The notes beneath the pieces are model-generated. The model ran no database searches. It saw only the letters and a list, made by a program, of their open reading frames with translations, and had not been told where the DNA came from. Position numbers and translations under genes: made by a program. Source: Verrucomicrobiota bacterium (GTDB lineage: Bacteria; Verrucomicrobiota; Verrucomicrobiia; Methylacidiphilales; JBCCWR01). Taken from it: DNA of 60,531 nucleotides. The stretch lies in NCBI GenBank assembly GCA_039193385.1, contig JBCCWR010000003.1, positions 1-60,531 of the forward strand, in the 5' to 3' direction. Positions 4,479 to 41,098 of this stretch are shown in pieces; the first letter of the stretch is position 1; every line of letters starts with the position of its first letter.

Positions 4479-5570
4479 TTAATGTTGATCACAAAAGTCA
4501 ATACCGACTTCACGACACATACGAACGAGCTGGTTATCATCCGTAACCTGTTTGAGTTTAGAAACAGCCTCTGCAAATGGTACACTCCCAACAAGATAAT
4601 TTTGATAACTTACCATATGTCCCCAAAGATCTTTATTCACTAATTCTATCGCCCCTACGCCAAAGCGTGTACCAAGAATACGATCCAGAGCCGTAGGTGC
4701 CCCTCCACGCTGCAAATGACCAAGAACAACATGGCGCGTCTCACGCCCAGTCATATCTTCTATACGCCGAGCCACTTGTGAAGCAATACCGCCAAGTTTA
4801 AATTCACCGCTTTTGCCATCATCCCCTTTCGTCACAATACCTGCATCTTGGGCATGAGCACCTTCTGCTACTACAACCATAGTATTTAAGGAACCGCTTG
4901 CTGTACTCTTTTTCACGGCTTCCGCCACTTGTTCATAATAAAAAGGAAGCTCTGGAATAAGAATAATGTCAGCGCCACCGGCTAGACCTCCGTGCAAAGC
5001 GATCCATCCTGCATAACGCCCCATGACTTCCACAACCATAACACGTTTATGACTCTTCGCAGTAGTATGCAAACGATCGAGAGCATCCACAACAACGCTT
5101 ACCGCTGAGTCAAAACCAAAAGTAATGGCTGTAGCTGAAAGATCATTATCAATCGTTTTGGGAACTCCAATGGTCTTAATACCAGCTTTAAAAAGATCAT
5201 AAGCTGTCGTCAAAGAACCATCTCCCCCAATGATGATAAGCCCCTCTACATTGAGATCTGAAAGCGTTTTTTTCGTTTGTTCAAGAACGCCATCTGCCAG
5301 CGTAAGCTTATCTCCTTGCCCCACTTTGGTGACAAAATGCCCTTTGTTGGTTGTGCCAAGAATCGTACCCCCTAGAGGCATAATATCCTCGGTTGCTTTT
5401 GTTTGAAGAATATCAAAACGCGAAGGCTGTAACAGACCTTCAAATCCATCATTAAAGCCGACGATTTCTCTTCCGGCATTTTTGCCCGCGTAAACAATAG
5501 CCCGTATCACTGCATTCAATCCGGGACAATCTCCACCACATGTTAAAACTCCAACTCTTTTCTCTGCCAT
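4479..5570 (-). CDS. pfkA: 6-phosphofructokinase (group III type)
   Basis: GGDCPGLN, GGTILGT, GGDGS, PKTIDND, EVMGR, LGHLQRGG. Confidence 0.95.
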   Translation of the reverse strand: MAEKRVGVLTCGGDCPGLNAVIRAIVYAGKNAGREIVGFNDGFEGLLQPSRFDILQTKATEDIMPLGGTILGTTNKGHFVTKVGQGDKLTLADGVLEQTKKTLSDLNVEGLIIIGGDGSLTTAYDLFKAGIKTIGVPKTIDNDLSATAITFGFDSAVSVVVDALDRLHTTAKSHKRVMVVEVMGRYAGWIALHGGLAGGADIILIPELPFYYEQVAEAVKKSTASGSLNTMVVVAEGAHAQDAGIVTKGDDGKSGEFKLGGIASQVARRIEDMTGRETRHVVLGHLQRGGAPTALDRILGTRFGVGAIELVNKDLWGHMVSYQNYLVGSVPFAEAVSKLKQVTDDNQLVRMCREVGIDFCDQH

Positions 5571-5680
5571 ACTGGTGGAAAGTTTTAAAGACCATTAGAA
5601 AAAACTTCCAGCGTAAACATTTCTAAAATTAACCATCAAAAGAAAAATCAAATGCTGGAAATCTCATTGCGGTCGTTTAA

Positions 5681-7693
<2,013 letters not shown>

Positions 7694-10475: not shown

Positions 10476-12614
10476 ATGGATAAGACAACTGAAAAGACGA
10501 CGAAAAAGAATGTAATCAAACTTTTTTCTAGTGATCTGGACGGCACCTTACTAGGAAACCCGGAAGCTACCGCTCGTTTCAAAGCAGCGTGGGAAAGTAT
10601 TCCTAAAAACAAAACACCTTTGCTTTGTTTTAATTCTGGCCGCCCTTACCCACAGATCGATAGCGTTCTCAAAAAGGACATTCTTCCCAAACCTGATTAC
10701 ATTATCAGCCTGCTTGGAACAGATGTTTTTGATGCCAAGAATAACAGCCCCATTCCAGAATTTTATGAACATTACCGGGAAGGTTGGGATCTGAAAAAAG
10801 TTGAAAAAATTGTCCAATCCATACCCAATTCTGAGAAACAGTCATCCCAATACCTACACTCCTATAAATCAAGTTGGTTTCTGGAAAATGCCACAGATGA
10901 ATCCATCGAACTCCTAAAAGATAAGTTTAAAAATGCCGGACTCGATGTGGCTGTAAACTACTCCCGTTACCGCTATCTTGATATCCTACCCAGGAACGCC
11001 AACAAAGACCAAGCTCTGGATTGGCTCTGCAAGTGGCTAGACCTGTCTTTAGAGAACGTGCTCGTTGCCGGTGATAGTGGAACAGACGCCTGTATGTTTC
11101 ATCTAGATGGCGTTCAGGGTATTGTTGTTGAAAATGCACAACCAGAGCTTTTTGAAGCCGTCGTTAGCCATGAAAACACCTTTCATTCCAAGGAAATCAT
11201 GGCCGACGGAGTCTTACTTGGGCTAAGACATTTCGGAGTCATTAAAGAGCTGCCCAAAGGGTATGCAGCCGGGGAAATCCGAGTTGATGTCGACCCTTCA
11301 TTACGCATGCTCTTTGACGAAGAGACAATTCCCTCCCTCAGCAAACAAGAGCAAAAGCTTCTGGAAACAGGCTATTTGAAAGCAATCGAAACCTTAGAGC
11401 GTAACATCACTCCCATGGGCTTCTCCGCCGCTTCTCTGGAGGATAATACTGTAACTGGTACGGATGAAAACTATCGTAGCGTCTGGGGTAGAGACGGAGC
11501 TATTACCACTATTTTCAGTATTGATCTTGATAAGCCCGAAATTCGAGCTGCTCAAAAACAAACGCTTAAAACTTTGTTCGACAGCATCACGCCCAGCGGT
11601 CAGATCCCCAGTAATGTCCGTATTGACTCTGGAAAACCAGACTACTCAGGCGTGGGTGGTATCTGCTCTATAGACAGTGGACTATGGGCCATCATCGCTT
11701 TTTATACTTATGTCAATGTGACTGAGGATATGGAATTCCTCAATGAGTATGCAGAAAAACTCGACCGTGTTATGAATTGGCTGAGTGCGCATGATAGTAA
11801 TAATGATGGACTGCTGGAGATTCCTGAAGCTGGAGACTGGACGGATCTTTTCGGCCGCAGTTATAACATTCTTTATGATGAAGTCCTTTGGTATAGAGCC
11901 AACATTTGCTATGGACACATTATGGAAATGGGTGGCGACCATGAGCGTGCCGCCGACTACTTTAGATGGGCACAGCATATTCAAACCGAACTGCTGGCCA
12001 CATTTTGGCCTTCTACAAAAACCAATGAAGATGCTGAAAACACCGTTACCTTCGCCGATCGTCAATTCTCAGTGGGAGATTCACAATATCTCCTGGCGCA
12101 GATCTCACCCTTTAACTTCAACTGGCGTTGTGACACCTTTGGCAACCTACTCGCTTTTGTCTTTAACCTACTGGACATAGACCGTGCTAAAACGGCATTT
12201 AAATTCATGTGGGGCGTTGGTGTTAATGAACCTTGGCCTGTTGCCAATCTTTATCCCACAGTACAGGCAGGGGATCCAGACTGGATGCCCTATTACACCG
12301 TTAATTTGCTCAACCTTCCACACCACTATCATAATGGCGGTATCTGGCCACTGATCGGTGGCATCTGGATCGTCTTCATTCATCGTCTCGGGTTAACTGA
12401 CATTGCCGCACGTGAGCTCGTCAAACTTGCCGAGTTAAATAAACTGGGTACCGAGGAAGAGTGGGAGTTTAACGAGTGGGCTCACGGCAAAACAGGACGC
12501 CCCATGGGCAAACGTTACCAGGCCTGGTCTGCTGCCTCCTTCATTCTAGCTTGCCGCGAAATGCGCGTTAAATCTGATAAAAACGGAAGTCTCAAAAATG
12601 ACAAAAACTCATAA
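10476..12614 (+). CDS. Fusion of HAD-IIB (SPP/MfppA-like) phosphatase and GH100 alkaline/neutral invertase-like domain
   Basis: N-term DLDGTL...GDSGTD; C-term WGRD, SIDSGLW, EAGDWTD, YHNGGIWP, FNEW, QAWSAA. Confidence 0.8.
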   Translation: MDKTTEKTTKKNVIKLFSSDLDGTLLGNPEATARFKAAWESIPKNKTPLLCFNSGRPYPQIDSVLKKDILPKPDYIISLLGTDVFDAKNNSPIPEFYEHYREGWDLKKVEKIVQSIPNSEKQSSQYLHSYKSSWFLENATDESIELLKDKFKNAGLDVAVNYSRYRYLDILPRNANKDQALDWLCKWLDLSLENVLVAGDSGTDACMFHLDGVQGIVVENAQPELFEAVVSHENTFHSKEIMADGVLLGLRHFGVIKELPKGYAAGEIRVDVDPSLRMLFDEETIPSLSKQEQKLLETGYLKAIETLERNITPMGFSAASLEDNTVTGTDENYRSVWGRDGAITTIFSIDLDKPEIRAAQKQTLKTLFDSITPSGQIPSNVRIDSGKPDYSGVGGICSIDSGLWAIIAFYTYVNVTEDMEFLNEYAEKLDRVMNWLSAHDSNNDGLLEIPEAGDWTDLFGRSYNILYDEVLWYRANICYGHIMEMGGDHERAADYFRWAQHIQTELLATFWPSTKTNEDAENTVTFADRQFSVGDSQYLLAQISPFNFNWRCDTFGNLLAFVFNLLDIDRAKTAFKFMWGVGVNEPWPVANLYPTVQAGDPDWMPYYTVNLLNLPHHYHNGGIWPLIGGIWIVFIHRLGLTDIAARELVKLAELNKLGTEEEWEFNEWAHGKTGRPMGKRYQAWSAASFILACREMRVKSDKNGSLKNDKNS

Positions 12615-13476
12615 CGTACTCTGCTTTGGCGAAGTGCTATGGGATTGTCTGCCCCGAGGGCTATTTATGGGAGGCGCACCGTGCAACGTCGCCTACCACC
12701 TTCAACAAAGTGGCATCACAGCTAACCCTGTTACGGCTGTAGGTCAGGATTTTCTAGGACATGAAATCGTACGGCGCATCAAAAATGCGGGACTCTCCGA
12801 TCAGTTTGTTCAAACCATCCCGGATAAAATGACAGGCGTTGTGCAGGTGCAAATCAATGAATTAGGCAATGCAAAATATGACATTACGGAAGACGTTGCC
12901 TGGGATTATATCTCCCTAGCTCAAGGCCTGGAAGAAGCCGCTATAAAGGCTAGTGCCATTGTATTTGGAAGTCTCGCACAACGCTCTCTACCCAACCGCG
13001 CTGTCCTGGGTGCCCTGCTTCATGATGCATCTGATGCCATGAAAGTTTTCGACGTCAACCTGCGCCCCCCTTTTGATGATTTACATCTTGTGCAAACACT
13101 CTGCTCAGAATCTGACCTCATCAAAATGAATGGAGACGAACTGAAACGTCTGACCGGCACTTCAAGCAATGACCTCGAAAAACATGCCCGTAAATTTGCT
13201 GAACTTTTATCAGGTAAGGATAAAATTTTTTGTATTACAGATGGAGCCAACGGTGCAGGATTACTTATCAAAAATAAATGGCTGTGGGAGAAAGCCAAGA
13301 AAATCGAAGTAAAAGATACCGTTGGCGCGGGAGATTCCTTCCTTGCCGCACTGATCAGTGAATTACTCCATGATAAAAAGCCGGCTGAAGCCCTTGTCAA
13401 AGCATGTCGTCTAGGTGATTTCGTTGCCTCATCTGATGGAGCTATGCCCTCATACAAATGGGAAGATATTGGTTAA
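12598..13476 (+). CDS. PfkB-family fructokinase
   Basis: GEVLWD, GGAPCNVA, FDVNLRP, DTVGAGDSF; overlaps the upstream gene. Confidence 0.9.
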   Translation: MTKTHNVLCFGEVLWDCLPRGLFMGGAPCNVAYHLQQSGITANPVTAVGQDFLGHEIVRRIKNAGLSDQFVQTIPDKMTGVVQVQINELGNAKYDITEDVAWDYISLAQGLEEAAIKASAIVFGSLAQRSLPNRAVLGALLHDASDAMKVFDVNLRPPFDDLHLVQTLCSESDLIKMNGDELKRLTGTSSNDLEKHARKFAELLSGKDKIFCITDGANGAGLLIKNKWLWEKAKKIEVKDTVGAGDSFLAALISELLHDKKPAEALVKACRLGDFVASSDGAMPSYKWEDIG

Positions 13477-28827: not shown

Positions 28828-29307
28828 ATGAAAAAGATGAAATTACTTTTTGTATGTATGGGAAACATTTGTCGTTCTCCTGCGGCTGAAGGCGTTATGC
28901 AAACGCTTATCGAAAAGGCGGAGCTGCAAGATACTATTTTCTGTGACTCCGCAGGTACCATTGGTTACCACGAAGGGAATCCCGCTGATAGACGTATGTC
29001 TTCCGCCGCCAAAAAACGCGGCTACCATCTTACCAGCACCGCGCGTAAAATCATTCCTGACGATTTAGAAAAATTTGATCTCATACTAACCATGGATGAA
29101 GAAAACTATGACAACGTATGCGCTTTGGCGGATTCCCCAGAAAAAGAAAAAAAGATCAAGGCTCTTTGCGACTACTGCACCAGCCATGATGACACAGAGG
29201 TGCCCGATCCGTATTATGGGGGCAATCAAGGCTTCGAGCATGTGCTGGACCTACTGGAAGATGGATGTTCCAACCTACTGGCAAGCATCAAAAAACAAGA
29301 AGGTTAG
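28828..29307 (+). CDS. Low molecular weight protein-tyrosine phosphatase
   Basis: CMGNICRS, DSAGT, VPDPYY. Confidence 0.95.
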   Translation: MKKMKLLFVCMGNICRSPAAEGVMQTLIEKAELQDTIFCDSAGTIGYHEGNPADRRMSSAAKKRGYHLTSTARKIIPDDLEKFDLILTMDEENYDNVCALADSPEKEKKIKALCDYCTSHDDTEVPDPYYGGNQGFEHVLDLLEDGCSNLLASIKKQEG

Positions 29308-30128
29308 CCAAAGACCATCTCGCGAAAGACTTGCCACATAATAAACAAAGTCCCCCGCCAGGAGTAGTGCACGTCTTCCTGAGCCTGGCCATTTGATTTA
29401 AGCAACCCGATGCTTAAGTTATGCGACATCATCGTGCGAAAAAATTCCTCGAAGAAAGTTTGCCCATTCTCCGGCTGCAAATCATTCGGAGCGACGTCCA
29501 CATCATTGAGTTTTAAAAAGGCCTCATGCCTCTCATAGAGTTCATCTGACGAGCTTGTCTCCAGACAACGAAATACTTTGAAGTGAGGCGGCATTTCCAG
29601 CCCATAAGCCAGAGGATAATTCCATGTAATCCACACGCTGCCATCTCGTGCTTGTGATCCGAAGATCGTATAGACTAAGCCAATATTTCCCTGAAGCGTC
29701 AACGCCACCGTAGCAAACACTGGTTTCTCCCGGTGTCTCAAAAGACGGAACCCCTGCTCATGAGGAGAAGGCTTTAACCAGTGATCGCCCTCCGTTAAAA
29801 AACCTACCTTGCGTAAATGACTGGATAGCTCATGCACCTCAGGAAATTCTTCAACATTCAGTGCTCCCTGCTTGAGGGAACGCTTGGATGAATAGCGTAA
29901 TTTACGTGACATAATGAAGACCTGACATATGGGAAAAACAAACCACATGGATACAGCAGCAAGCGCCAGGACAAGACTATCTGTCCAAAAGTATAGTGCC
30001 GTGCCGATGGTTCCTAATACAAGCCAGCTGGCCAGCTTTTTTGAAAGGCTTGAGCTAAATTGAAAAAGCGAATACGCCAGCAAAAACAATCCCGCCAATA
30101 GGCCCGTCTCTATCATCCATGATTCCAT
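29304..30128 (-). CDS. hypothetical membrane protein
   Basis: N-terminal TMs plus soluble domain. Confidence 0.7.
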   Translation of the reverse strand: MESWMIETGLLAGLFLLAYSLFQFSSSLSKKLASWLVLGTIGTALYFWTDSLVLALAAVSMWFVFPICQVFIMSRKLRYSSKRSLKQGALNVEEFPEVHELSSHLRKVGFLTEGDHWLKPSPHEQGFRLLRHREKPVFATVALTLQGNIGLVYTIFGSQARDGSVWITWNYPLAYGLEMPPHFKVFRCLETSSSDELYERHEAFLKLNDVDVAPNDLQPENGQTFFEEFFRTMMSHNLSIGLLKSNGQAQEDVHYSWRGTLFIMWQVFREMVFG

Positions 30129-30236: not shown

Positions 30237-30310
<74 letters not shown>

Positions 30311-30388
30311 TACTCCGCCAGGAGTATGAAGGGAGATTCTATCATCCGCTGGAAGCGCATCCCGATTAGCGGAGGGGTGACTGGGCCG

Positions 30389-30409
30389 CAAATCCTGCTC
30401 CCGCAACCA
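30389..30409 (+). repeat. Duplicated tRNA-fMet 3' end (att-like), this copy carrying CCA
   Basis: CAAATCCTGCTCCCGCAA at 30293-30310 and 30389-30406, the second followed by CCA. Confidence 0.9.
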
Positions 30410-30559: not shown

Positions 30560-31660
30560 TCATTCTTCGTAGGCTTCAAGCAAGCCGCCACGATGACAGC
30601 CTTCCAAAAAGGCGACCTTAAGAAAATTGCTATTGGCTAGTGGGTCTATCTGAGCCAGCTCTTTGGCATCGTTGATTGATTCAGATGCATCAATGTTTCG
30701 TTTATCCTTCTGTATTCGAATAGTCTCCAGCCAATCTTTGCCATCCCTTCCGCTACACTTAGCCTTATACCTCTCTTCTATGCCATAGAGATCGCACCAA
30801 GTGGAAATTTCTTCTCTGAGCGTTTCAGGACCGAAAGTTAATTGAATGTTCTCCTTTTTTATATGGCCATCTTCTATTCCTGTTACATTTACGGCAACCG
30901 ATATCCCAACCTGAGTTTCAGAATAAGGGTAAAAGGCTTTTCTTCGCTGTGTTGTTCCAGCTGGATCTTTGGGTTTGTAACTTGGCTCTTTTGTGCTTTT
31001 GTAGCTGCTATTGCAATGATGACACGCTGGGGCCAAATTCCTGAAATTGATTGAATTGAAAGGATACAATGCCTTAGGCAAGTAATGATCGTAAGAATCG
31101 CGTTTTGAGTGATCGACAAGCATATCTGTGATTCCACAGAATGGGCATTTACTGGGTCTCCCATTCTCTTTCATCAATTCCTCATAGTGATCATCGATTT
31201 CACCAATGACATCCCTAATCTTTTCAAGTCTCAGTAAACTTTGAGAATATAGACCCTTGAAAAATTCGGCCAACATGCCGCTAAGACTGCTATGCTTGTA
31301 GCTTATAGCACTAAGGTCAGTGTAGCGGAGCAAAACACTGTTTGGGTTGTTACAAATTGCCTCAATATCGTTGTTAGCTCTATACCAAGTTCTAAGTTGT
31401 TGGATATCCTCAGAACTCAGATCAGCAAATTGAGTGTATATATTTTTTATGTCAGTGAAAAACTGCTTACCTCGTTGAGGAGGGTTCTGCGAGTAGCCAA
31501 AAGACGCTATTACTTTTTCGAGATCGGTATAACCAGCAAACAAATCCCTACCAAATAACAAACCCTCAGGAGCCTTACACCATACCTCAAAAAAGATGTA
31601 GTCGATGAACTCCTGCATCTTCTCCATTTTATGAGGGATATATTTATAGGGACGTAACAT
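30560..31660 (-). CDS. HNH endonuclease-domain protein (PtuB-like)
   Basis: CPFC...YDHYLPK..YP....NFRNLAPACHHCN. Confidence 0.85.
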   Translation of the reverse strand: MLRPYKYIPHKMEKMQEFIDYIFFEVWCKAPEGLLFGRDLFAGYTDLEKVIASFGYSQNPPQRGKQFFTDIKNIYTQFADLSSEDIQQLRTWYRANNDIEAICNNPNSVLLRYTDLSAISYKHSSLSGMLAEFFKGLYSQSLLRLEKIRDVIGEIDDHYEELMKENGRPSKCPFCGITDMLVDHSKRDSYDHYLPKALYPFNSINFRNLAPACHHCNSSYKSTKEPSYKPKDPAGTTQRRKAFYPYSETQVGISVAVNVTGIEDGHIKKENIQLTFGPETLREEISTWCDLYGIEERYKAKCSGRDGKDWLETIRIQKDKRNIDASESINDAKELAQIDPLANSNFLKVAFLEGCHRGGLLEAYEE

Positions 31661-33399
31661 TAGTCGTTTGTTTTTTCAGAGTTAAGAATGCTTTTGATGG
31701 CTAGCATTTTCTCGATGGAATCGCCTAGTTGACTATTCATTAATTCAATGATTTCTTCTTTACTTTCACCTGCTTCAACACGGTTCTTCAATTCCTCCAA
31801 AATCGTTTGGGCACGGCGGCCAATCGTTTCTTCCTTATTGAAAGTGTTCATGGTGATTTTGTTGATTGAGGCACCCAGTGTATTGTATTCGGGATGTTGT
31901 ACGGAAACAATGCCGTCCTCTTTACTGAAAACCAAAACCTTGTCGGGTTGACTGTCTGAAATGAGAAACGGCGTGTGAGTTGTTATGAGCATTTCACGAT
32001 GTCCTGTGGAGTCTTTGAAACACTGGTGTAAACGAGTAATAAAGTTGGAACGCCAATCGGGATTAAAATGAGTTTCAGGCTCATCAAGGAGAAACAAGCT
32101 ATTTGTATTCTTGAAAAGCATACAAAGACCAAGGCTATGCAACAACTGGTGCTCTCCGTCGGACAAGCTTTTGAGCATAAAGTAATCATCACTATCCTCT
32201 TTCATGAACCGAACATATTTGAAACGCATGATGCGCTCATCTGAAGCAAGCGTTGGCACAGTCTCGTTTACATAGTGACTGTCTGAGTGATAAAGCTCTT
32301 CTTTTAGCTTTAGGCTGACAGAGTACAGATTCAGAGTCAGCAAAACCTGAAATGCCTGGAAGAGCGCAATCGGGGATTCGTTTTCTGCGAAGTCGAAGTT
32401 TTTACTGAATGCCTCACGAGTCGCATCATTTACCCAGTAATCAAGGTGTAAAGTATCTGTCGCTTCTTCGACAAAGTAACAGGTCGCACATCGTTTGAGG
32501 CGTGTGACAATCGGATCGAAATTCTCGGCCGAGTCATCATCTGCTTCAAGCAGTTTTATAACATCAACGGTATAGGTTCCTGTTTCGCTGTCATGAATGA
32601 GAGCTGGATTTTTATCTTCGAACAGACTAGCGGTTTCTGCATCTACTTGAATGCTACGACGAATGACGATGCGAAACTCTTTCAATGCACCGATACCGAT
32701 ATCTTCTTTAAATGGAGCAAGTTCATTTTCCTGATAAAATAGAAGATTCGTGATGAGAATGGCTTGGCTAAAACTATTATCCAGATATGCCATACGAGTT
32801 TCGGGACGTCCAGGATACGGCAACTGCTTTTGTAAGGCATTTAAGTATTCATCATACTGAATGAAGCGCATTTTGAAAAAGGAAAGACTTAAAATTTCGT
32901 TTTCGCCAGATGAATAACCCAAAACAAATTCGGGAAGAAGTGAACTTCTTGTAGAATCCTCTGATACATAGGGGTCTTCAGATTTTGGTTCAAATAAATT
33001 TACATCATTGCAATAAATATCAGGAGATTCCCCTTTAATTTTAGAAACTAAAACATCCGTCCAGGAATCAAAATCCTTGAGATAAATTTGGTACTCCAGC
33101 TCATAAGCATCAAGGATATCATGATGAACTTCGGCATCTGCCACGACGTCCTCTTCTCCGGGAAAATTTTCAGGAAGAAAACGGCGGCGGACGCGTAAAA
33201 CTTCAAGTTGATAAAAAATGAGGGCTAGAGCTTCCAGTAGATTTGATTTGCCACTACCATTAGGACCAGCACATACAAAAGGAGCAAATGCGATTTTTCC
33301 TTCATCGAGTTGCCAATCCCTTCTAAAGTGATACTCAAAGCCTTCCTGCAAGCTGCGAAAGCCTTTAGGATCAGTTATCTTTAGGCGGAGGAGTTTCAC
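31660..33399 (-). CDS. Restriction system-associated ABC/AAA_21 ATPase (PtuA-like)
   Basis: Walker A GPNGSGKS, signature LSDGE, Walker B LLDEPETH, H-loop TTHTP; GTG start. Confidence 0.9.
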   Translation of the reverse strand: MKLLRLKITDPKGFRSLQEGFEYHFRRDWQLDEGKIAFAPFVCAGPNGSGKSNLLEALALIFYQLEVLRVRRRFLPENFPGEEDVVADAEVHHDILDAYELEYQIYLKDFDSWTDVLVSKIKGESPDIYCNDVNLFEPKSEDPYVSEDSTRSSLLPEFVLGYSSGENEILSLSFFKMRFIQYDEYLNALQKQLPYPGRPETRMAYLDNSFSQAILITNLLFYQENELAPFKEDIGIGALKEFRIVIRRSIQVDAETASLFEDKNPALIHDSETGTYTVDVIKLLEADDDSAENFDPIVTRLKRCATCYFVEEATDTLHLDYWVNDATREAFSKNFDFAENESPIALFQAFQVLLTLNLYSVSLKLKEELYHSDSHYVNETVPTLASDERIMRFKYVRFMKEDSDDYFMLKSLSDGEHQLLHSLGLCMLFKNTNSLFLLDEPETHFNPDWRSNFITRLHQCFKDSTGHREMLITTHTPFLISDSQPDKVLVFSKEDGIVSVQHPEYNTLGASINKITMNTFNKEETIGRRAQTILEELKNRVEAGESKEEIIELMNSQLGDSIEKMLAIKSILNSEKTND

Positions 33400-33404
33400 G
33401 GTAT

Positions 33405-34958
33405 TTAGCTGCGAATTAACTGGATCGTATTGGTATCCTTATCAAATTTTTGCCGGAGGTTTTTCGCTGATAATTTATCATAAACTACTTTAGATAGTTT
33501 ATCATAGACACCGACATCAACAGAAACTGGATCATCCATCAGATCTTCAAGGCGGCGGTTAACCAGATCAACAAACCGATGCGTTTCAATCGCCTCTTTT
33601 CCTCTTTCGTTTTGGTAAAACTCAAACCACTTTTCAATCATTTGCTCGCGCCCCTCTTCAGTATTGGCATCGTGCTCTGAGAGTTTGGGCAATACCATCT
33701 CAGATATGCTTTCACTGTCCTCTTTTCCATGAATAGAGGAAGTTCCCATATGTTGGACTTCAAATGTTAAGTGAACTTTGGATAAGTCTAATTCACCAGC
33801 GAAGGCTTTTTGGCTTAAGGAGCCGTAGAGGTTTTCGAGGTTGGATAAGCTATTTTTAATTCTATTTATAATATTTTGAGTCTTTATGTAACGTTCCTCA
33901 AAGAGGTTTTGAAGATCAATAGGTGGTCTATAAATTTTTGTTTCTTTGATTATGGTAAGATTTAGCCCACTCATAATTGCCCCTCTGGTACGGGCTTTAA
34001 ATTGTTTTAAGATATAAGGACTGGAGTGAATAGCAAAAGACAAGAATATAGGATTAGCGATTTCTTTGTTTAATGTAATGGCTGCCAAGTGCTTAGTATT
34101 AATTGCTAGAGGTATATCATCAGGAATTACTGCAGAACGTCCAATTGTTCCCATTATTGTGACAATGACATCTCTAGGATGAATTGTATAATTTTTAAGT
34201 TCTTGATATTTTGACGCAGTAATAAAACGACGTTCCCCCCAACAAAACTGATTGTTAACAGCGTTATCAATACCAAGAACCGCTACTGGACCTTCTGATA
34301 CGAATTCACTATGTAATAAATTTGATCCAAAAGGTCCTGTTCTCATGGCTCCTTTATGATTCGAAGCAAGAGTTTTGATTTCTACATAAGGCCAGTTTTC
34401 ATCTTCAGCCTTGCTTGGTGAGAACATGTCGAGAAAAACGCTTTTGAGGAAATCGTCGAGATCTTGAAGATGCTGCTTGCGTTGTGCGATAAGTCCTTCA
34501 ACTTTACTCAGCAAATAGGCTATGCGTTGTTGGTCTTCCAGTTTAATCTTAGGTAGCTCTATCCTCTCTAATGAAGGTCTACTAATATGAGGAATCGTTG
34601 CTCCAGTTGCGTTTTTTCTGAGATAAGTGAGTTTTGACCTTAATAACAGTCCAAGAAAAGTTGAATCAAGCTGTTTAGGGTCATTTATTCTAAGTCTTGC
34701 TATGGTGCTACCAGCAAATCCTGATTTCCCATAACCTATTGTACCAGCATTTGCACCATCCCAAGCAATTAAAACATCATTTTTGTCTACTTTAGTCCCT
34801 TTACTATCTTCCGTGTATTTGATTACCCCATCATGACGAAGATCTTCTATGCTAATTACTCTTGTTGAAGACTCTCCCTTTGATTCTTGAGTAGAGTGCT
34901 TTTTGCCTTTCTTTATTGAAATAAATGAGCCAAGACTTGGTGTCTCTTTATTTATCAT
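33405..34958 (-). CDS. hsdS: Type I RM specificity subunit with C-terminal extension
   Basis: GATIPHI, EDQQRIA, GPFGSNL, PPIDLQ, LSQKAFAGEL. Confidence 0.92.
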   Translation of the reverse strand: MINKETPSLGSFISIKKGKKHSTQESKGESSTRVISIEDLRHDGVIKYTEDSKGTKVDKNDVLIAWDGANAGTIGYGKSGFAGSTIARLRINDPKQLDSTFLGLLLRSKLTYLRKNATGATIPHISRPSLERIELPKIKLEDQQRIAYLLSKVEGLIAQRKQHLQDLDDFLKSVFLDMFSPSKAEDENWPYVEIKTLASNHKGAMRTGPFGSNLLHSEFVSEGPVAVLGIDNAVNNQFCWGERRFITASKYQELKNYTIHPRDVIVTIMGTIGRSAVIPDDIPLAINTKHLAAITLNKEIANPIFLSFAIHSSPYILKQFKARTRGAIMSGLNLTIIKETKIYRPPIDLQNLFEERYIKTQNIINRIKNSLSNLENLYGSLSQKAFAGELDLSKVHLTFEVQHMGTSSIHGKEDSESISEMVLPKLSEHDANTEEGREQMIEKWFEFYQNERGKEAIETHRFVDLVNRRLEDLMDDPVSVDVGVYDKLSKVVYDKLSAKNLRQKFDKDTNTIQLIRS

Positions 34959-36649
34959 CGAATCATTCCCTTCAATTCAAGGAGTTCTTTCACAATGCCT
35001 GTATTAATCTTTTTCAAACTTGCTTCGCTGGCATCTCCAACCTCAGCCTTAATGAGCTTATCTATGATATCAGCAGGAGCATCATATTCGATATGCTCTA
35101 ACTCGTCTTCTTTATATCTCCCGAGAGAAAGGTCGTAGGCTTCCTCTGCCTCGATATCTGATCGAGGCACCATGAAATATTTTTCTTTACGATCCGTATC
35201 CGTTTCAGGATTTCGAGCGTGGTATTTGGCAATGATGTCTTGTAAATCGCCATGGTTATCTTGCTTCGTTCGTTTATCATCTAAAGAGTAGCCATCTGAA
35301 TCCATCTGATAGAACCAAACATGTTCGGTTGCGGGTTTGCTGACTTTTTCTTTGGGACCCCAAACTTTAGTGAAGAGCAAGATCGCTGTTGCTACTCCAG
35401 CATAGGGTTTAAAAACACCGCTGGGCATCGTGATGACTGCTTTGAGTTCACAACGATCTATCAAGGTTTTGCGTAGGTCTTTGAATGCTTTTCCCGAACC
35501 GAAGAGCACACCTTGAGGAACGATCACACAAGCAGTGCCCCCTTTTTTCAGCAGACGGTAGATGTTTTCCACAAAAAGCAACTCTGACTTGGTTGTGCCG
35601 AGGGTAAGGTTTTCATTGATGTCCCCTTTGTCGATACTGCCTGTAAAGGGAGGGTTCGCCATCACTACATCGTATTCAGATTCTTGGTTGTAGCTTTTGC
35701 TAAGCGTGTCTTTGTAGTCGATAAGCGGCTCATCAATGCCGTGCATCATTAAATTCATCAAACCAAGCCGAACCATGGTACTATCAATATCGTAACCATA
35801 GAGTGAACTTTGCAAAATTATCTGCGCCTTCTCAGTTAGACCTGCTGCGACAGAGGTGCGAGTAAAACCATCTTCATCGGGCTGAAGGTTTTTGCTTCCC
35901 GCCTTGATCGCCAGTTGAGTCACAATGTATTGATAGGCTCCTAGCAGGAACCCACCTGAACCACAGGCAGGATCACAAATACGATGGCCTAGTTGTGGTT
36001 TCACCAAATCAGCCATGAGCTTTATAATGTGACGTGGAGTGCGGAATTGGCCATTCTTACCTGCTGTGGCTATCTCCGAGAGCAGCATCTCATAGACGTC
36101 TCCCTGGATGTCCTGAAAAGCTTGCCCCTTCTCTTGGGAGTCTTTCTCCATGACCTCGAATATCTCATCGATGGTTTTCACCGCTTCTACTAACAGTGCG
36201 GGTTTAGGGATGATGAAGACAGCATTCTTCATATGGTGGGTGAAGTTAGACTCTTCACCGTTCATATCCTTCAGGAACGGGAATACCTTGCTCTGGACAT
36301 GTTGCAGCATGTCTTCCGCCTGCATACGTTTAAATTCACTCCAACGTAGAGAACTTTTCGAAATACCAAGCTGCTTAGTCAGTTCATTACGTTCTTTTTT
36401 AGACTTGGTTTCATCGATCTTGGCTTTGTGCTCCGGTGGAATCCAAACACCTTCAAATTTTGATGTATAGCTTTCCTCGCTCCACTCAGAATCAGCCTGT
36501 TTCTTTTGATCGAGATCATCCAATCGCTTCATAAAGAGCAGGTAGGTAATCTGTTCGATCGCTGTTAATGGATTGGATATGCCACCGCTCCAGAATTTAT
36601 TCCAGAGTTGGTCGATTTTACTTTTTAGTTCAGGATTGTTTTGAAGCAT
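34955..36649 (-). CDS. hsdM: Type I RM N6-adenine methyltransferase
   Basis: GQFRTPRHI, DPACGSGGFL, NPPF. Confidence 0.96.
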   Translation of the reverse strand: MLQNNPELKSKIDQLWNKFWSGGISNPLTAIEQITYLLFMKRLDDLDQKKQADSEWSEESYTSKFEGVWIPPEHKAKIDETKSKKERNELTKQLGISKSSLRWSEFKRMQAEDMLQHVQSKVFPFLKDMNGEESNFTHHMKNAVFIIPKPALLVEAVKTIDEIFEVMEKDSQEKGQAFQDIQGDVYEMLLSEIATAGKNGQFRTPRHIIKLMADLVKPQLGHRICDPACGSGGFLLGAYQYIVTQLAIKAGSKNLQPDEDGFTRTSVAAGLTEKAQIILQSSLYGYDIDSTMVRLGLMNLMMHGIDEPLIDYKDTLSKSYNQESEYDVVMANPPFTGSIDKGDINENLTLGTTKSELLFVENIYRLLKKGGTACVIVPQGVLFGSGKAFKDLRKTLIDRCELKAVITMPSGVFKPYAGVATAILLFTKVWGPKEKVSKPATEHVWFYQMDSDGYSLDDKRTKQDNHGDLQDIIAKYHARNPETDTDRKEKYFMVPRSDIEAEEAYDLSLGRYKEDELEHIEYDAPADIIDKLIKAEVGDASEASLKKINTGIVKELLELKGMIR

Positions 36650-36665
36650 TTTCTTAAATTCATTG

Positions 36666-39476
36666 TTATGCGGCGAGTGCAGTCGTCAGTCTGAGAACCT
36701 CGTCGATCTCAGCCGGGCTAAAAACGCCACGAATTCCTTGAGGGTGAATAACGGTGAAAGGTGCGCGAATAAGGTCTTTCTTCTCAACCTTTTCACGTTC
36801 AATGATAAATCCCTTCAACAGATTGAGGAATTCCATCTGACGGCTACTTAGGTTTGTATGTTCGCGATAAAATTTTTCAAAAGCTTCGCTTACTGTTTCG
36901 GGAAAGCTTTTCAGGATTTCAATACCAAGAATATGTCGAATAAATTGGATGAACGTTGCTTTTCGATTCTGGTAAACCTGACGTAGCAGGTCTTCAGTAA
37001 TGTGCGGATGCTCCGAAAGTAGCAGGTCGGCTAGGGAGTTAGCTTCTTCAGAAGAGACTTCTTCACCGTTCTTGATTTTAAGTAAGACAGGATTCGCCTC
37101 CGTAAGTTCAGCGATGAGATTTTCAACCATTTCACGGTAACGGCTTATGCTGACAGCTTCATTTTCCGGGCCGAACTCAACCCGCTCTTTGTTATGCAAC
37201 ACATCGGTCAAATCGAGTTGAATGGGATCGGAACTCTTGTCGCCCTCACGGAATTTCATTAATGGCCCAAGCCTGCTATTCAACGCATCTAAAGAATCCT
37301 CCAGCTGAATGATGTTTTCACGTTTCCAGAAGGATTCTCTTTGGGCGTCTCTGATGAGATCAGCTTCAACTTTGACAAAACCAACGGAAAGTGGGAGTTC
37401 GCCAATCTGTTCGATGATGCCACTCCTAAGCGTTGCCGCCTTGTCGGATTCTTTAGAAAGAACAGAAAGCGAATATTCGATCAAATCGCGCTCAAAACGC
37501 ATGGCCTTGAAATCCACCTCTGAAATCGTTCGCATGAGAGGCTTAATTTCGGATCTAAGAAATTCAACTTTTTCATGTGTGAGTTTGATCCAATAGTTTT
37601 CATCTTCAACCTTCGTGAGCATTTCAGCAGCTTCAATCACAACAACTGAATTTTGAGGCAGGTCTTTGATTTGTGTTCTAAGCTTAGCGGCTTCTCTGGA
37701 GCAGATTAATTCTTCGTTTGTTTCAATCGCTTTCTCAGTTTTATCGAGGCGAAGACCAAATAACCTAACAGGTAAGGGAAGCTGTGGCTTCAATTCCTTT
37801 CCTTTGGGTTGCAGTTTAAAATACTCAAAGTTGTCCCAGCAATCGAGAATGAGAAAGACATCTTTTTCAGTACACCAGGGTTTCACTTTACCGGGATCTA
37901 ACAATCGCGTGCCGCGACCGATCATTTGCCAAAATTTAGTGTAAGAATAAACGGGTTTGGCAAAGACTAAATTGACGAGTTCTCGGACGTCGATTCCTGT
38001 ATCCAGCATATCCACACTGATAGCGATACGCGGCATGTCATTATGGATAAACTGATCCAGAAGCCCACTTTTTCCATAAACGCGTGGATCATCAGAAACA
38101 AGCACTTTGGCTAACTCACCTTTATATTGAGGATAGAGCTTATCAAAGATTTCTTCGATACGTCTTGCATGAGATTTCGATGAACAAAAGAAGATGGATT
38201 TACCAGGCAGCACCCCATTGGCATCCTTGATGGATTCCTCCATGAATTCACGGACGATGAGCGTATTAGTTCCCTGGTTTATGACTTTTTTCTCAAGCTG
38301 AGTGCCTTCGAAATTAATTTCTTCAACTTCCTTGCCTTCAAGCATCAGCTTCTTTTGGTCTTCAAGTGTAATGGTGCGCTTACTTATACCCTCCATCTGA
38401 AAGCGCGTCTGAATCTTCATAACCTGAAAATTGCACAGATAAGGAGGCATATTATTTACGGCTTCTTCAAATGTATAGGCGAAGGTCGGCAAACCATCTT
38501 CACAGTGAAAAAGTTGAAAAGTATTATGATCGATGATATCCGTTGGCGTTGCCGTTAAACCTACTGTTATGGTTTTAAAATAATCCAATACCTCACAATA
38601 AGTGTTGTAAATGGAGCGGTGACTCTCATCGACGACGATAAAGTCAAAAAAATGAGGTGAAAGGTGCTGAATATCATCGCGAATAATGTTCAGCATGGTG
38701 GGGTAGGTAGAAACGTAGATACGTCTATCTTGAGCTATCAACTTTTCCCCTACATTTGGCCACCGTGGTTCATTGGGAAGGTGCTCCTTGAAAGCTGAGA
38801 TTGCCTGCTCTCGAAGCGCTATTCGGTCGACCAAAAACAAAATACGCTCTGCATGTCCTGATCGCATGAGTGTATCAACCAATGAAATGCAGGTGCGTGT
38901 CTTTCCTGTTCCTGTGGCCATAACCAAGAGAAAGTCTCGCTTCTTATTTTCAATTCCCTCTAAAACCGCTCGAATGGCTCTGATCTGGTAATCACGTCCA
39001 GCGATATCCGTGTTGATCAATTCTTGAGTCAGTGGTTTGCGATTCCTACGAATATATTGAAACCGCTCCATATCGTCTCTAGTGGGGAATCCCACAACTT
39101 TGCGAGGAGGATAGTTTTCTAAATCCCAGAAAAAAGTATTCAGCCCATTGGTGTAAAAACAAAAGGGTAATTCTCCACCAAGTTGTTTCTGAATGTTATA
39201 ACAGTATTGCTTTGCTTGCTCGCGCCCTATCGCCGCATCTTTGCTTGATTTTTTGGCTTCAACCACCGCAAGCGGTTTACCGTCTTTTCCAAGTAGCACA
39301 TAGTCGCTAAATTGGTGGCCTGCATATGGGGCAGAAGCTTCCTTAAGGCTGTTTAAAGGTTCCGTGAGAATATCAAACTCCTCGATAACTTGAGTTGGAT
39401 CTGAAATATTCCAACCAGACTGGGCAAGCTGCTGATCAATCAATTGTGACCGAGTCTGTGCCTCCGTTTTGCTCAT
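36666..39476 (-). CDS. hsdR: Type I RM restriction subunit (EcoAI/EcoEI-like)
   Basis: SDYVL...VVEAKK nuclease, MATGTGKT, DESH, TATP, QMIGRGTR. Confidence 0.96.
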   Translation of the reverse strand: MSKTEAQTRSQLIDQQLAQSGWNISDPTQVIEEFDILTEPLNSLKEASAPYAGHQFSDYVLLGKDGKPLAVVEAKKSSKDAAIGREQAKQYCYNIQKQLGGELPFCFYTNGLNTFFWDLENYPPRKVVGFPTRDDMERFQYIRRNRKPLTQELINTDIAGRDYQIRAIRAVLEGIENKKRDFLLVMATGTGKTRTCISLVDTLMRSGHAERILFLVDRIALREQAISAFKEHLPNEPRWPNVGEKLIAQDRRIYVSTYPTMLNIIRDDIQHLSPHFFDFIVVDESHRSIYNTYCEVLDYFKTITVGLTATPTDIIDHNTFQLFHCEDGLPTFAYTFEEAVNNMPPYLCNFQVMKIQTRFQMEGISKRTITLEDQKKLMLEGKEVEEINFEGTQLEKKVINQGTNTLIVREFMEESIKDANGVLPGKSIFFCSSKSHARRIEEIFDKLYPQYKGELAKVLVSDDPRVYGKSGLLDQFIHNDMPRIAISVDMLDTGIDVRELVNLVFAKPVYSYTKFWQMIGRGTRLLDPGKVKPWCTEKDVFLILDCWDNFEYFKLQPKGKELKPQLPLPVRLFGLRLDKTEKAIETNEELICSREAAKLRTQIKDLPQNSVVVIEAAEMLTKVEDENYWIKLTHEKVEFLRSEIKPLMRTISEVDFKAMRFERDLIEYSLSVLSKESDKAATLRSGIIEQIGELPLSVGFVKVEADLIRDAQRESFWKRENIIQLEDSLDALNSRLGPLMKFREGDKSSDPIQLDLTDVLHNKERVEFGPENEAVSISRYREMVENLIAELTEANPVLLKIKNGEEVSSEEANSLADLLLSEHPHITEDLLRQVYQNRKATFIQFIRHILGIEILKSFPETVSEAFEKFYREHTNLSSRQMEFLNLLKGFIIEREKVEKKDLIRAPFTVIHPQGIRGVFSPAEIDEVLRLTTALAA

Positions 39477-39477
39477 A

Positions 39478-39681
39478 TTATAGCTTTCCTTCCTTCTTCA
39501 TTCCTATGCAGAAGGTATCGAACGATTTCTGTGCTAGTCGGGAGGGAGTTGTTTTCCCGTTTTCCCATCGATTTACCGTCGAAAAACTAATACCCAATTC
39601 ACGCGCAAGGTCTTCTTGGCTGATACCAAGTTTTTCTCTTACCGATTTAACTGTATCAGAAAATTGTCTGGTGTTGGTCAC
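39478..39681 (-). CDS. XRE HTH regulator leading the RM operon
   Basis: ISQEDLARELGISFSTVNRWENGKTTP; 1 bp before hsdR. Confidence 0.9.
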   Translation of the reverse strand: MTNTRQFSDTVKSVREKLGISQEDLARELGISFSTVNRWENGKTTPSRLAQKSFDTFCIGMKKEGKL

Positions 39682-39740: not shown

Positions 39741-39971
39741 CTAATAATCCTTCTCTGATAGGTAAGAACCAACACTAAAGCCGAGGGCATTAGCTACTTT
39801 TAAAAGCGTGTAAAGTGTTGGGTTTATCTCAAGGCTTTCTAAGTGTCTTAGCCCTGTTCGACTGATTCCTGCCAGTTCGCTGAGCCTTTGCTGTGAGATT
39901 TCCTGACGCTTTCTTTTCAGCCTTGAATGAATAAATGATGAGCGATAAGCCATTTCCATTTTTAAACTCAT
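39741..39971 (-). CDS. XRE HTH protein
   Basis: ISQQRLSELAGISRTGLRHLE...NPTLYTLLKVANALG. Confidence 0.8.
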   Translation of the reverse strand: MSLKMEMAYRSSFIHSRLKRKRQEISQQRLSELAGISRTGLRHLESLEINPTLYTLLKVANALGFSVGSYLSEKDY

Positions 39972-40009: not shown

Positions 40010-41098
40010 TTAAGACCTAACCAGCACTGCCAGGCATTCTATGTGCGCGGTCCGAGGAAACATATCAACAGGTTGGAAGGCATCGGCTTTCCATTTTGGA
40101 CTCAAGCGTTTGAGGTCACGCGCCAGGGTGGACGGATTACAAGACAGGTAAATGATCTGCTCAAAGTCCAACGTAGAGATCTGATCCACAACATCTTTGC
40201 TCAAACCTTCACGAGGCGGGTCAATCAATAAACCCACCGGCTCTGCTTCGCACCATTCATAGGCACGCTTTAAGTGATCTGCAAAATCCCCCTCAATCAA
40301 ACGAGTGCGCGAGGATAAGCTTTTCTGTGCCTCATCCACAGCACGCTTATCGGACTCAATACTAATGATAAACTCCACCTCCTGCTCTATGACTTCAGAG
40401 AAAAAACCCACTCCGGCATAACCTTCTACAATGGAACGCAAGCGATGATCTACCGCTTCGCGCACCAGCTTTCTCAGAGGCTCAAGCAAAAAGCGATTTG
40501 CCTGAAAAAAAGCCGCATGAGGAATATCTGTAGCGCGTAGCGAATAATGCTCCCGCATAGAACCGCGTCGCTGACGCAGCTCGGTTAATTTTAAATTCAC
40601 CTCCTTTGAGGCGATGGCGCATTGATCAATATCAATAACATCACGTGAATCCTTACCATGATAGCCTATCTTTCCCCGCTGTGTATGAACACTGATGCGG
40701 TTGCGATAGCCATAGGCACTCTCACCACGTATGAAAGGTCGGATGCGAGGGTTTTCTATACCGCCAATTTTCTGCAACACATCACGCAGTTGCTTCTCCT
40801 TCACACGCAACTCTTCTGCATAACTCATATGCTGGTAATTACAGCCACCGCATACTCCGAAGTAAGCGCAATGTGGCTTTTCCCGCGCGCTGCTTGTTTC
40901 CAGCAATTCCAGGACAATGCCTCGGTAGAAATTCTTCCTATCCTGGGTTACTTGAACTAAAGCTCGTTCACCGACCAGAACATAAGGCACAAAAATAACT
41001 CTGCCTTTATGCCGGGCGACGCCTTCTCCACCGAAAGCAATATCCACAATCTCCACCTCCAGGACAGTGCCTACCTGAATACGCTTTTGTTCTCTCAC
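40010..41098 (-). CDS. TRAM-domain RNA m5U methyltransferase (RlmD/TrmA family)
   Basis: CAYFGVCGGC 4Fe-4S motif, FFQAN, DPPREG, YLSCNP, DMFPRTAHIE. Confidence 0.92.
   Translation of the reverse strand: MREQKRIQVGTVLEVEIVDIAFGGEGVARHKGRVIFVPYVLVGERALVQVTQDRKNFYRGIVLELLETSSAREKPHCAYFGVCGGCNYQHMSYAEELRVKEKQLRDVLQKIGGIENPRIRPFIRGESAYGYRNRISVHTQRGKIGYHGKDSRDVIDIDQCAIASKEVNLKLTELRQRRGSMREHYSLRATDIPHAAFFQANRFLLEPLRKLVREAVDHRLRSIVEGYAGVGFFSEVIEQEVEFIISIESDKRAVDEAQKSLSSRTRLIEGDFADHLKRAYEWCEAEPVGLLIDPPREGLSKDVVDQISTLDFEQIIYLSCNPSTLARDLKRLSPKWKADAFQPVDMFPRTAHIECLAVLVRS

Follow-up and report, generated by a model that had tools for sequence, protein, structure and literature searches.

A Septu-like ATPase-HNH nuclease pair genetically linked to the methyltransferase core of Type I restriction operons, and the predicted winged-helix tail of HsdS that accompanies it

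Septu-type modules, in which the genes of an ATP-binding cassette (ABC)/structural maintenance of chromosomes (SMC)-type ATPase and of an HNH nuclease stand side by side, are widespread, and their activation is understood only where they are coupled to a retron. In retron type I-A (Retron-Eco7/Ec78), the PtuA-PtuB toxin is held inactive on a scaffold of reverse transcriptase and multicopy single-stranded DNA (RT-msDNA), and tRNA cleavage follows once a phage nuclease has cut the msDNA and so released the toxin (PMC12673091, PMC12475279, and PMC11555353, in the portions of these sources available to us). Here we describe a pair with the same gene adjacency and motif set at the 3' end of a Type I restriction-modification (RM) operon from a Verrucomicrobiota bacterium (assembly GCA_039193385.1, contig JBCCWR010000003.1, positions 1 to 60,531; this whole stretch of 60,531 nucleotides is called the window). 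The pair is linked across many phyla to hsdM and hsdS, and the HsdS protein encoded next to it carries a C-terminal tail with a predicted winged-helix fold.

Three other described systems come close to this arrangement. PrrC of EcoprrI is likewise an ABC-type NTPase-linked nuclease encoded directly after hsdS in a Type I operon, the likeness being one of gene position only, and it stays latent until the restriction enzyme is inhibited (PMC12707154). PrrC is, however, a single polypeptide with an anticodon-nuclease domain, whereas the window encodes two proteins with an HNH nuclease, and the available portion of PMC12707154 does not mention an appended HsdS domain for EcoprrI. In Ronin, HsdM and HsdS without HsdR restrain the death effector RonA, a 61-aa membrane peptide and not an HNH nuclease (bioRxiv 10.1101/2023.04.06.535777, available portion). 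In PARIS, a related ABC ATPase, AriA, senses Ocr, but its nuclease is of the TOPRIM type (AriB) and it has no hsd link. PrrC, PARIS, and Ronin are all described, in the parts of the sources at hand, as firing on anti-restriction proteins (bioRxiv 10.1101/2023.04.06.535777; PMC12707154).

The locus in the window consists of six co-oriented open reading frames (ORFs) on the minus strand, given here in the order of transcription, with HsdS divided into its core and its extension.

39478..39681, minus strand: HTH, an Xre-type helix-turn-helix protein of 67 aa (Pfam HTH_3, E 9.7e-15)
36666..39476, minus strand: hsdR, Type I restriction subunit of 936 aa (Pfam ResIII, HSDR_N, Helicase_C, and EcoEI_R_C; PADLOC REase_I, E 1.6e-165)
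34955..36649, minus strand: hsdM, N6-adenine methyltransferase subunit of 564 aa (Pfam N6_Mtase, E 2e-58, and HsdM_N)
33405..34958, minus strand: hsdS, whole gene, 517 aa
33774..34958, minus strand: hsdS core, residues 1-395, two target recognition domains and conserved helices (Pfam Methylase_S in two stretches; PADLOC Specificity_I, E 3e-67)
33408..33773, minus strand: HsdS C-terminal extension, residues 396-517, a variable acidic linker followed by a predicted winged-helix domain of about 90 aa
31660..33399, minus strand: ABC/SMC-type ATPase of 579 aa with a GTG start (TIGR04435, PtuA-like)
30560..31660, minus strand: HNH nuclease partner of 366 aa (PtuB/PDC-M01B-like, with family-specific N- and C-terminal helical domains)

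The junctions are tight throughout. The HTH gene ends in TAA, which is separated from the ATG of hsdR by a single T, as read from the sequence; hsdR ends in TAA, 16 nt before the ATG of hsdM; hsdM and hsdS overlap by 4 nt in ATGA; hsdS ends in TAA, 5 nt before the GTG of the ATPase gene; and the ATPase and HNH genes overlap by one base in TAATG. The co-oriented run of six genes with gaps of 1, 16, -4, 5, and -1 bp that an earlier note had read from this DNA was thus found at the same coordinates. The long start of the HNH gene, and with it the one-base overlap, is supported because the N-terminus of the protein is conserved in homologues (22 of 22 aligned).

The ATPase is assigned by profile to NCBIfam TIGR04435 as a full-length member: it scores 738.6 bits (E 5.1e-222), far beyond the threshold of 300, and the match spans profile positions 1-567 of 568. 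The curated name of this family is "restriction system-associated AAA family ATPase," and the NCBI annotation pipeline PGAP applies it in E. coli and plasmid records. Among defense systems, the best match is PADLOC PtuA (PDLC00293, E 5.5e-49), with weaker matches to the retron I-A ATPase, AriA (E 7.8e-18), and PDC-M01A. Weak matches to SMC_N and RecF-like families were also observed, and no Pfam family was found for the middle region. The Walker A (GPNGSGKS), signature (LSDGE), Walker B (LLDEPE), and H-loop (TTH) motifs are present, and across 77 sequences the core residues of these motifs vary little or not at all. The closest solved chains by sequence are PtuA and AriA, in both cases over the C-terminal lobe only.

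The HNH protein matches PADLOC PDC-M01B (E 2e-15) and PtuB (E 4.4e-9) around residues 157-232, the PtuB profiles giving E values from 4.4e-9 to 3.5e-7 over only about 60 residues. All 22 sequences compared share the motif CPFCG...DHY...N...C..CN without change. At default thresholds the protein fell into no Pfam or NCBIfam family, Pfam HNH reaching only E 0.019, and no solved chain was matched by sequence. The AlphaFold2 (AF2) model of the protein has a predicted local distance difference test (pLDDT) score of 72.7, with the catalytic core (residues 181-248) at low confidence, and a Foldseek comparison of this model with the PDB gave no match at E <=0.001. Clusters at 90% identity number more than 3452 for the ATPase family and 1963 for the HNH protein. 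These PtuA, PtuB, and PDC-M01B matches support the likeness to Septu that the earlier note had proposed, clearly for the ATPase and less clearly for the HNH protein.

The pair is nevertheless distinct from the described ATPase-HNH modules. In contrast with Septu, it does not stand by itself and always follows hsdS, its similarity to PtuA lies mainly in the C-terminal lobe, and the HNH protein is larger than PtuB, with N- and C-terminal domains of its own. The profile of the retron I-A PtuA (NCBIfam NF041760) gives 47.8 bits, far from its cut-off of 500, and family scans of the neighboring ORFs detected no reverse transcriptase; the presumed scaffold is the HsdS tail and not RT-msDNA. The window also falls outside the definition of PARIS, since the match to AriA is weaker than that to PtuA and the partner is an HNH protein. 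Scores against MADS stay well below the cut-offs as well (MAD2, 116 bits versus 720; MAD3, 35 versus 420; MAD5, 57 versus 400).

The restriction core in the window has the features of a Type I RM system, with a PD-(D/E)xK nuclease and a superfamily 2 (SF2) helicase motor in HsdR, catalytic and S-adenosylmethionine (SAM)-binding motifs in HsdM, and two target recognition domains in HsdS. The nuclease motif of HsdR (D58, E72-x-K74), together with GTGKT and DESH, is conserved across 62 aligned HsdR sequences, and the alignment of HsdM shows NPPF and DPACGSGGF. Replacement of a dead HsdR nuclease by the HNH protein was considered and rejected for this locus, where the HsdR motifs are intact. HsdR, HsdM, HsdS, the ATPase, and the HNH protein can each be assigned to a family and retain their catalytic motifs. 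The window HsdM also has a 15-residue insert that marks the main pair-linked clade. Relative to pair-less homologues, HsdM of this clade contains three small insertions, among them this segment (VWGPKDKV..PATE.), and another insertion lengthens the C-terminal helix. In known Type I enzymes this helix packs against HsdS.

To follow the pair beyond the window, genomes were scanned with one genome per species, which gave 185 confirmed relatives of the ATPase. The best 80 loci (53-65% identity) were used, and their six-frame ORFs were searched with profiles built from the window proteins. They come from Chlorobiaceae, Desulfobacterota, Pseudomonadota, Cyanobacteria, Nitrospirota, Verrucomicrobiota, Lentisphaeria, Planctomycetota, and other groups. 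The hsdS gene lies directly 5' of the ATPase gene in 80/80 loci, and the HNH gene directly 3' of it in 79/80, the remaining locus ending at a contig edge. The hsdM and hsdR genes were found in 76/80 and 65/80 loci, respectively, the remainder being lost to contig ends. Apart from such losses, the order hsdR-hsdM-hsdS-ATPase-HNH on a single strand recurs across the set, and the one-base overlap of the ATPase and HNH genes is found again in nearly all loci. Such recurrence goes well beyond chance.

The same layout was observed outside this set. Four of four plasmid records show hsdS followed by the ATPase gene, although the hsdS annotation of the Kovacikia record is limited to a fragment of 224 aa. 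The plasmids of Hymenobacter, Sphingobium, and Priestia, with ATPase identities of 26-29%, carry hsdM-hsdS-ATPase followed by a protein with an HNH motif, and are annotated with the TIGR04435 name. In E. coli, the pair is present in 96/5426 complete genomes, always on the chromosome, and subunit S is annotated under the match in 14/15 carriers among the matches listed; one high-identity copy that was examined has the whole five-gene cassette on an integrative conjugative element (ICE). Within the phylum of the window, 3/401 genomes exceeded the cut-off for the ATPase. No ATPase relative was found in phage records, and no solitary ATPase-HNH pair away from hsdS was seen among the 80 genome loci, the four plasmid loci, and the E. 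coli matches listed.

These results bear directly on what the earlier note had claimed. It stated that the ATPase family associates with RM loci, which agrees with both the TIGR04435 assignment and the adjacency to hsdS, and it would have given up its proposal of an RM-guarding module had homologues occurred mostly without hsd genes; hsdS stood upstream in all 80 genome and all four plasmid loci. Of the RM-linked two-gene module itself, the genetic link is strongly supported, yet the pair is tied to hsdM-hsdS and not to hsdR. In the proposed operon, the order of the hsd, ATPase, and HNH genes is conserved, but the HTH gene does not hold as a member of the unit, given that a homologue lies directly upstream of hsdR in only 4/60 related loci (those with at least 800 bp of upstream DNA). 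The HTH gene is a local addition and not a conserved member of the cassette.

The second result concerns HsdS. In the pair-linked genome loci, HsdS is longer than usual: 77/77 full-length proteins run 118-186 aa past the last conserved helix, where a variable linker, acidic for the most part, leads into a conserved domain of about 90 residues. HsdS of two pair-less relatives (G295 and G085) ends 3 and 1 residues past that helix. The tail has no Pfam family. An AF2 model of residues 426-517, built with 77 sequences, shows three helices and a beta hairpin (pLDDT 83.4; predicted template modeling score, pTM, 0.70). Its top neighbors by VIA-align are all winged-helix domains (E2F-DP, Z 8.4; cullin WHB, 7.8; DpnI, 7.7). 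Small domains often reach Z scores this high, and our claim is therefore limited to the class of fold. Foldseek returned only weak winged-helix rows (E 0.1-1). The model thus predicts a winged-helix fold for the tail. Kinship with the winged helices of kleisins was considered from rows for MukE/F, ScpA, and JetABC; many unrelated winged-helix domains matched at least as well, and the resemblance is taken as analogy only.

The association between tail and pair was also examined in 80 loci chosen by HsdM alone. They came from a scan of metagenome contigs for which the HsdM alignment contained sequences from loci with no pair as well. Of these, 29 could not be scored (14 with no HsdS detected, 9 with HsdS cut by the contig end, and 6 with hsdS upstream of hsdM), which left 51 loci with a complete HsdS after hsdM. 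The tail profile matched HsdS in 16 of the 19 loci with the pair and in both loci that retain only a remnant of the ATPase, while there was no match in the 24 loci without the pair and with at least 600 bp of downstream DNA, nor in the 6 loci with too little downstream DNA. Run against all ORFs of all loci, the profile matches HsdS C-termini only. The pair and tail occur together on three HsdM backgrounds, distinguished by a 15-, 12-, or 6-residue segment, and pair-less loci occur on at least two of them. The association is therefore not the effect of a single clade.

Pair-less members of the main clade provide a view of how the tail is lost. Three of them (L142, L150, and L158) have HsdS stubs of 13-38 aa that resemble the start of the linker. 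Because these loci keep linker stubs only, tail and pair appear to have been lost together, and the stubs indicate probable deletions that removed the predicted winged helix and the pair jointly. In a further locus (L163, 1388-3313), the first half of the tail is fused in frame to an unrelated C-terminal region, apparently through a deletion in which the pair was lost. Separately, the only locus with the pair after a tail-less HsdS (L170, 9566-13385; HsdS of 385 aa), which sits on the 6-residue background, encodes a shorter ATPase (529 aa) and a longer HNH protein (385 aa).

The restriction core also occurs without the pair. A search with the window HsdR in 401 genomes of the same phylum gave seven other genomes at 58% identity or more, the next tier lying at 33-38%. 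G295 and G085, the two relatives with a short HsdS, carry hsdR-hsdM-hsdS, and neither an ATPase nor an HNH gene follows; another genome (G395) has an N-terminally truncated ATPase; and a further one (G354, locus L119) has the cassette with a frameshifted ATPase. In this last locus (5366-6817 and 10882-12653), an extra AAA_21/AAA_15 ATPase gene lies between hsdR and hsdM, and the TIGR04435 ATPase is split by the frameshift. The restriction system is complete without the pair, and the ATPase family was not seen without hsdS. Because the restriction core exists without the pair, the HsdR motifs are intact, and the pair was never seen without hsdS, the pattern is the one expected of an accessory module, here wired genetically to the methyltransferase core.

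The converse situation, in which hsdR is absent, was also observed. Within 8 kb of one metagenome locus (L190), neither an HsdR nor a ResIII gene was found, the neighbors being only GmrSD-like genes and a MORN-repeat protein, and another (L178) has no hsdR nearby. On the Hymenobacter plasmid nothing matches ResIII, and on the Priestia plasmid the sole match lies within a DUF2075 gene. In the hsdR-less loci, HsdM keeps NPPF and in most cases also the SAM-binding motif. Moreover, a lineage of 85 E. coli genomes (L129, NZ_CP029973.1, and 84 others) has a decayed form beside yeeJ and tRNA-Asn, without hsdR and with hsdM broken into two parts; its ORFs for the tailed HsdS, the ATPase, and the HNH protein are nevertheless intact, and the motifs are preserved. 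The invariant unit is thus hsdM-hsdS(tail)-ATPase-HNH. The hsdR-less four-gene loci look similar to Ronin, as far as the available portion of its source describes it; in contrast with Ronin, most loci of this cassette keep an hsdR that is predicted to work from its intact motifs.

Further genes are found inside cassettes that are otherwise the same, between hsdR and hsdM or between hsdM and hsdS. They vary, comprising KilA-N or Bro-N with PDDEXK_3, a YhcG/DUF1016 nuclease, RhuM/Fic, and Schlafen AlbA_2 with Fic-like_C (loci L012, L016, L019, L020, L026, L029, L038, L039, L040, L047, L083, and L086). Unlike this variable cargo, the pair keeps a fixed position across loci.

The rates at which the components diverge were compared in 54 loci in which all proteins are full-length. 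Mean pairwise distances were 0.165 for HsdR, 0.176 for HsdM, 0.336 for the ATPase, 0.453 for the HNH protein, and 0.625 for the HsdS tail, which shows that the ATPase, the HNH protein, and the tail diverge 2-4 times faster than HsdR and HsdM of the same loci. The strongest correlation of the tail was with the ATPase (r 0.61), with partial correlations of 0.37 given HsdR and 0.41 given HsdM. No correlation was found between tail and HNH distances (partial -0.06). The relation between tail and ATPase distances fits with a contact between the two proteins.

In the window, the cassette is flanked by an rlmD-like gene on one side and a tRNA-Met gene on the other, and its GC content is somewhat below that of the flanks.

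30237..30406, plus strand: tRNA-Met and an exact 18-nt copy of its 3' end (ARAGORN; direct repeat D1)

The two copies of D1 (30293-30310 = 30389-30406) are spaced so that the second lies 96 nt downstream of the first, beside the end of the HNH gene. This repeat of the tRNA-Met 3' end is probably an integration scar. No integrase was found between the repeat and rlmD, nor was a matching far boundary; a third, weak copy (78%) inside rlmD was considered as an attachment site and taken as chance. The rlmD-like methyltransferase gene (40010-41098) encodes 362 aa against 432 profile positions and is matched in two stretches, and an internal part seems to be missing. Between it and the first HTH gene lies a second small HTH gene (39741-39971, 76 aa) with weak PADLOC "control protein" matches, of which no homologue was found upstream of hsdR in the 60 related loci. 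On the other side, beyond the tRNA, a 274-aa ORF on the minus strand (29304-30128) has hydrophobic N-terminal segments and no match in the family libraries. A scan for promoters and terminators gave fewer sites than in shuffled sequences and nothing usable.

With regard to function, the reading that we tentatively prefer is that the pair guards the restriction complex, a possibility that we put somewhat short of even. In this proposal, a complete Type I operon carries a PtuAB-like ATPase-HNH pair as a fixed part of its 3' end. The winged-helix tail of HsdS would dock the ATPase, which the shared occurrence of tail and pair makes likely, and the methyltransferase core would hold the nuclease silent, in place of the RT-msDNA scaffold. 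A phage DNA mimic or another anti-restriction protein that blocks the restriction complex would then release the nuclease as an abortive back-up, with growth arrest through cleavage of DNA or tRNA as the putative outcome. The restraint of the pair by a sensor scaffold follows the logic of retron I-A, in the portion of its sources available, and the anti-restriction trigger is proposed by analogy with PrrC, PARIS, Ronin, and retron I-A.

A number of observations weigh against this proposal. The related loci are kin, and the counts given for them overstate the independent support. Among the 19 metagenome loci with the pair, two (L157 and L187) have long tails that the tail profile does not recognize, and L170, with its 3-residue HsdS tail, is a true exception. 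The joint deletion of tail and pair is partly expected from geometry, as the tail-coding end of hsdS borders the ATPase gene, and the correlation of their distances could likewise stem from this adjacency or from a shared recombination history. Winged helices often bind DNA, so the role of the tail may be unrelated to the pair. The long flexible linker would tether, yet it offers no obvious route by which occupancy of the DNA groove could be signaled to the nuclease. An intact restriction complex appears unnecessary to keep the pair harmless, because 85 E. coli genomes keep the pair with a split hsdM and no hsdR; in these genomes the HsdS tail is still present. Finally, the literature searched contains no binding, toxicity, or phage test of this ATPase family.

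The E. coli lineage and the hsdR-less loci fit better with a different explanation, the main rival of the guard reading, in which the pair is a second restriction arm. The tail of HsdS would bring it to the core at unmethylated sites, where the ATPase would engage the DNA and the HNH protein would cut, so that the four genes would make up an RM-like system complete in itself, hsdR being optional. The four-gene hsdM-hsdS-ATPase-HNH loci without hsdR (L190, L178, and the Hymenobacter and Priestia plasmids) are in line with this, as is their HsdM, with its NPPF and, mostly, its SAM-binding motif. The lineage with a broken hsdM tolerates an intact pair, which would be expected if target recognition by M2S1 were needed for activity. 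We nevertheless consider this explanation doubtful. In the close loci, hsdR with intact motifs is present in 65/80 and lost to contig ends in the others, and its absence in the plasmid cases covers the plasmids only and not the host chromosomes. A flexible tether alone cannot report the methylation state, which would put self-DNA at risk, and known PtuAB modules are described, in the accessible parts of the sources, as restrained toxins and not as site-directed enzymes. About as unlikely is the more general arrangement in which the winged helix of HsdS is an adaptor that plugs the pair into the core, so that one recognition core would serve two effectors in a modular family and the pair would replace HsdR in the hsdR-less loci, making these a novel class of RM system.

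It is improbable that the pair is an autonomous Septu that travels with the RM genes in a mobile defense island, with no physical or regulatory link, while the tail serves the RM enzyme, for example as an extra DNA contact. Septu is indeed a two-gene system and defense genes cluster and nest (PMC8565338 and PMC12255303, available portions), other cargo genes lie inside the same operons, and winged-helix domains commonly bind DNA. That cargo is variable, however, whereas the position and overlaps of the pair are fixed in 80/80 loci, no member of the ATPase family was seen away from hsdS, and tail and pair are lost together. Least probable of all is that the pair serves the host in the repair or processing of Type I DNA ends or in restriction alleviation, like the SbcCD/Rad50-Mre11 machines: the weak SMC_N and RecF-like matches of the ATPase and its tethering to an enzyme that makes double-strand breaks would suit such a role, but the best matches are the defense effectors PtuA, AriA, PDC-M01, and the retron ATPase, the pair and tail evolve fast for housekeeping repair, and their spread is patchy and mobile (3/401 genomes of the phylum; E. 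coli copies on an ICE).

The ATPase family and its neighborhood had already been catalogued by name, TIGR04435, but this name records the neighborhood only, and the sources found give no mechanism, partner, or HsdS tail. No experimental or comparative study of the cassette was found in the literature searched, neither a paper under the phrase "restriction system-associated AAA" nor a study within the literature on Septu and hsd; Krishnan et al. 2020 may already describe the arrangement. New here are the predicted winged-helix tail of HsdS and the finding that it occurs together with the pair, the four-gene form that lacks hsdR, and the contrast in rates.

If the proposal that the pair guards the restriction complex is true, this cassette would be a second natural case of an ATPase-HNH module plugged into a sensor, in this instance the best-studied class of restriction enzymes. 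The tail of HsdS would provide a deletable handle on whether restriction complexes carry back-up effectors, and such tests are feasible in E. coli because the cassette occurs in complete genomes of that species. Should the hsdR-less loci work alone, they would represent a new type of effector for Type I-like restriction.

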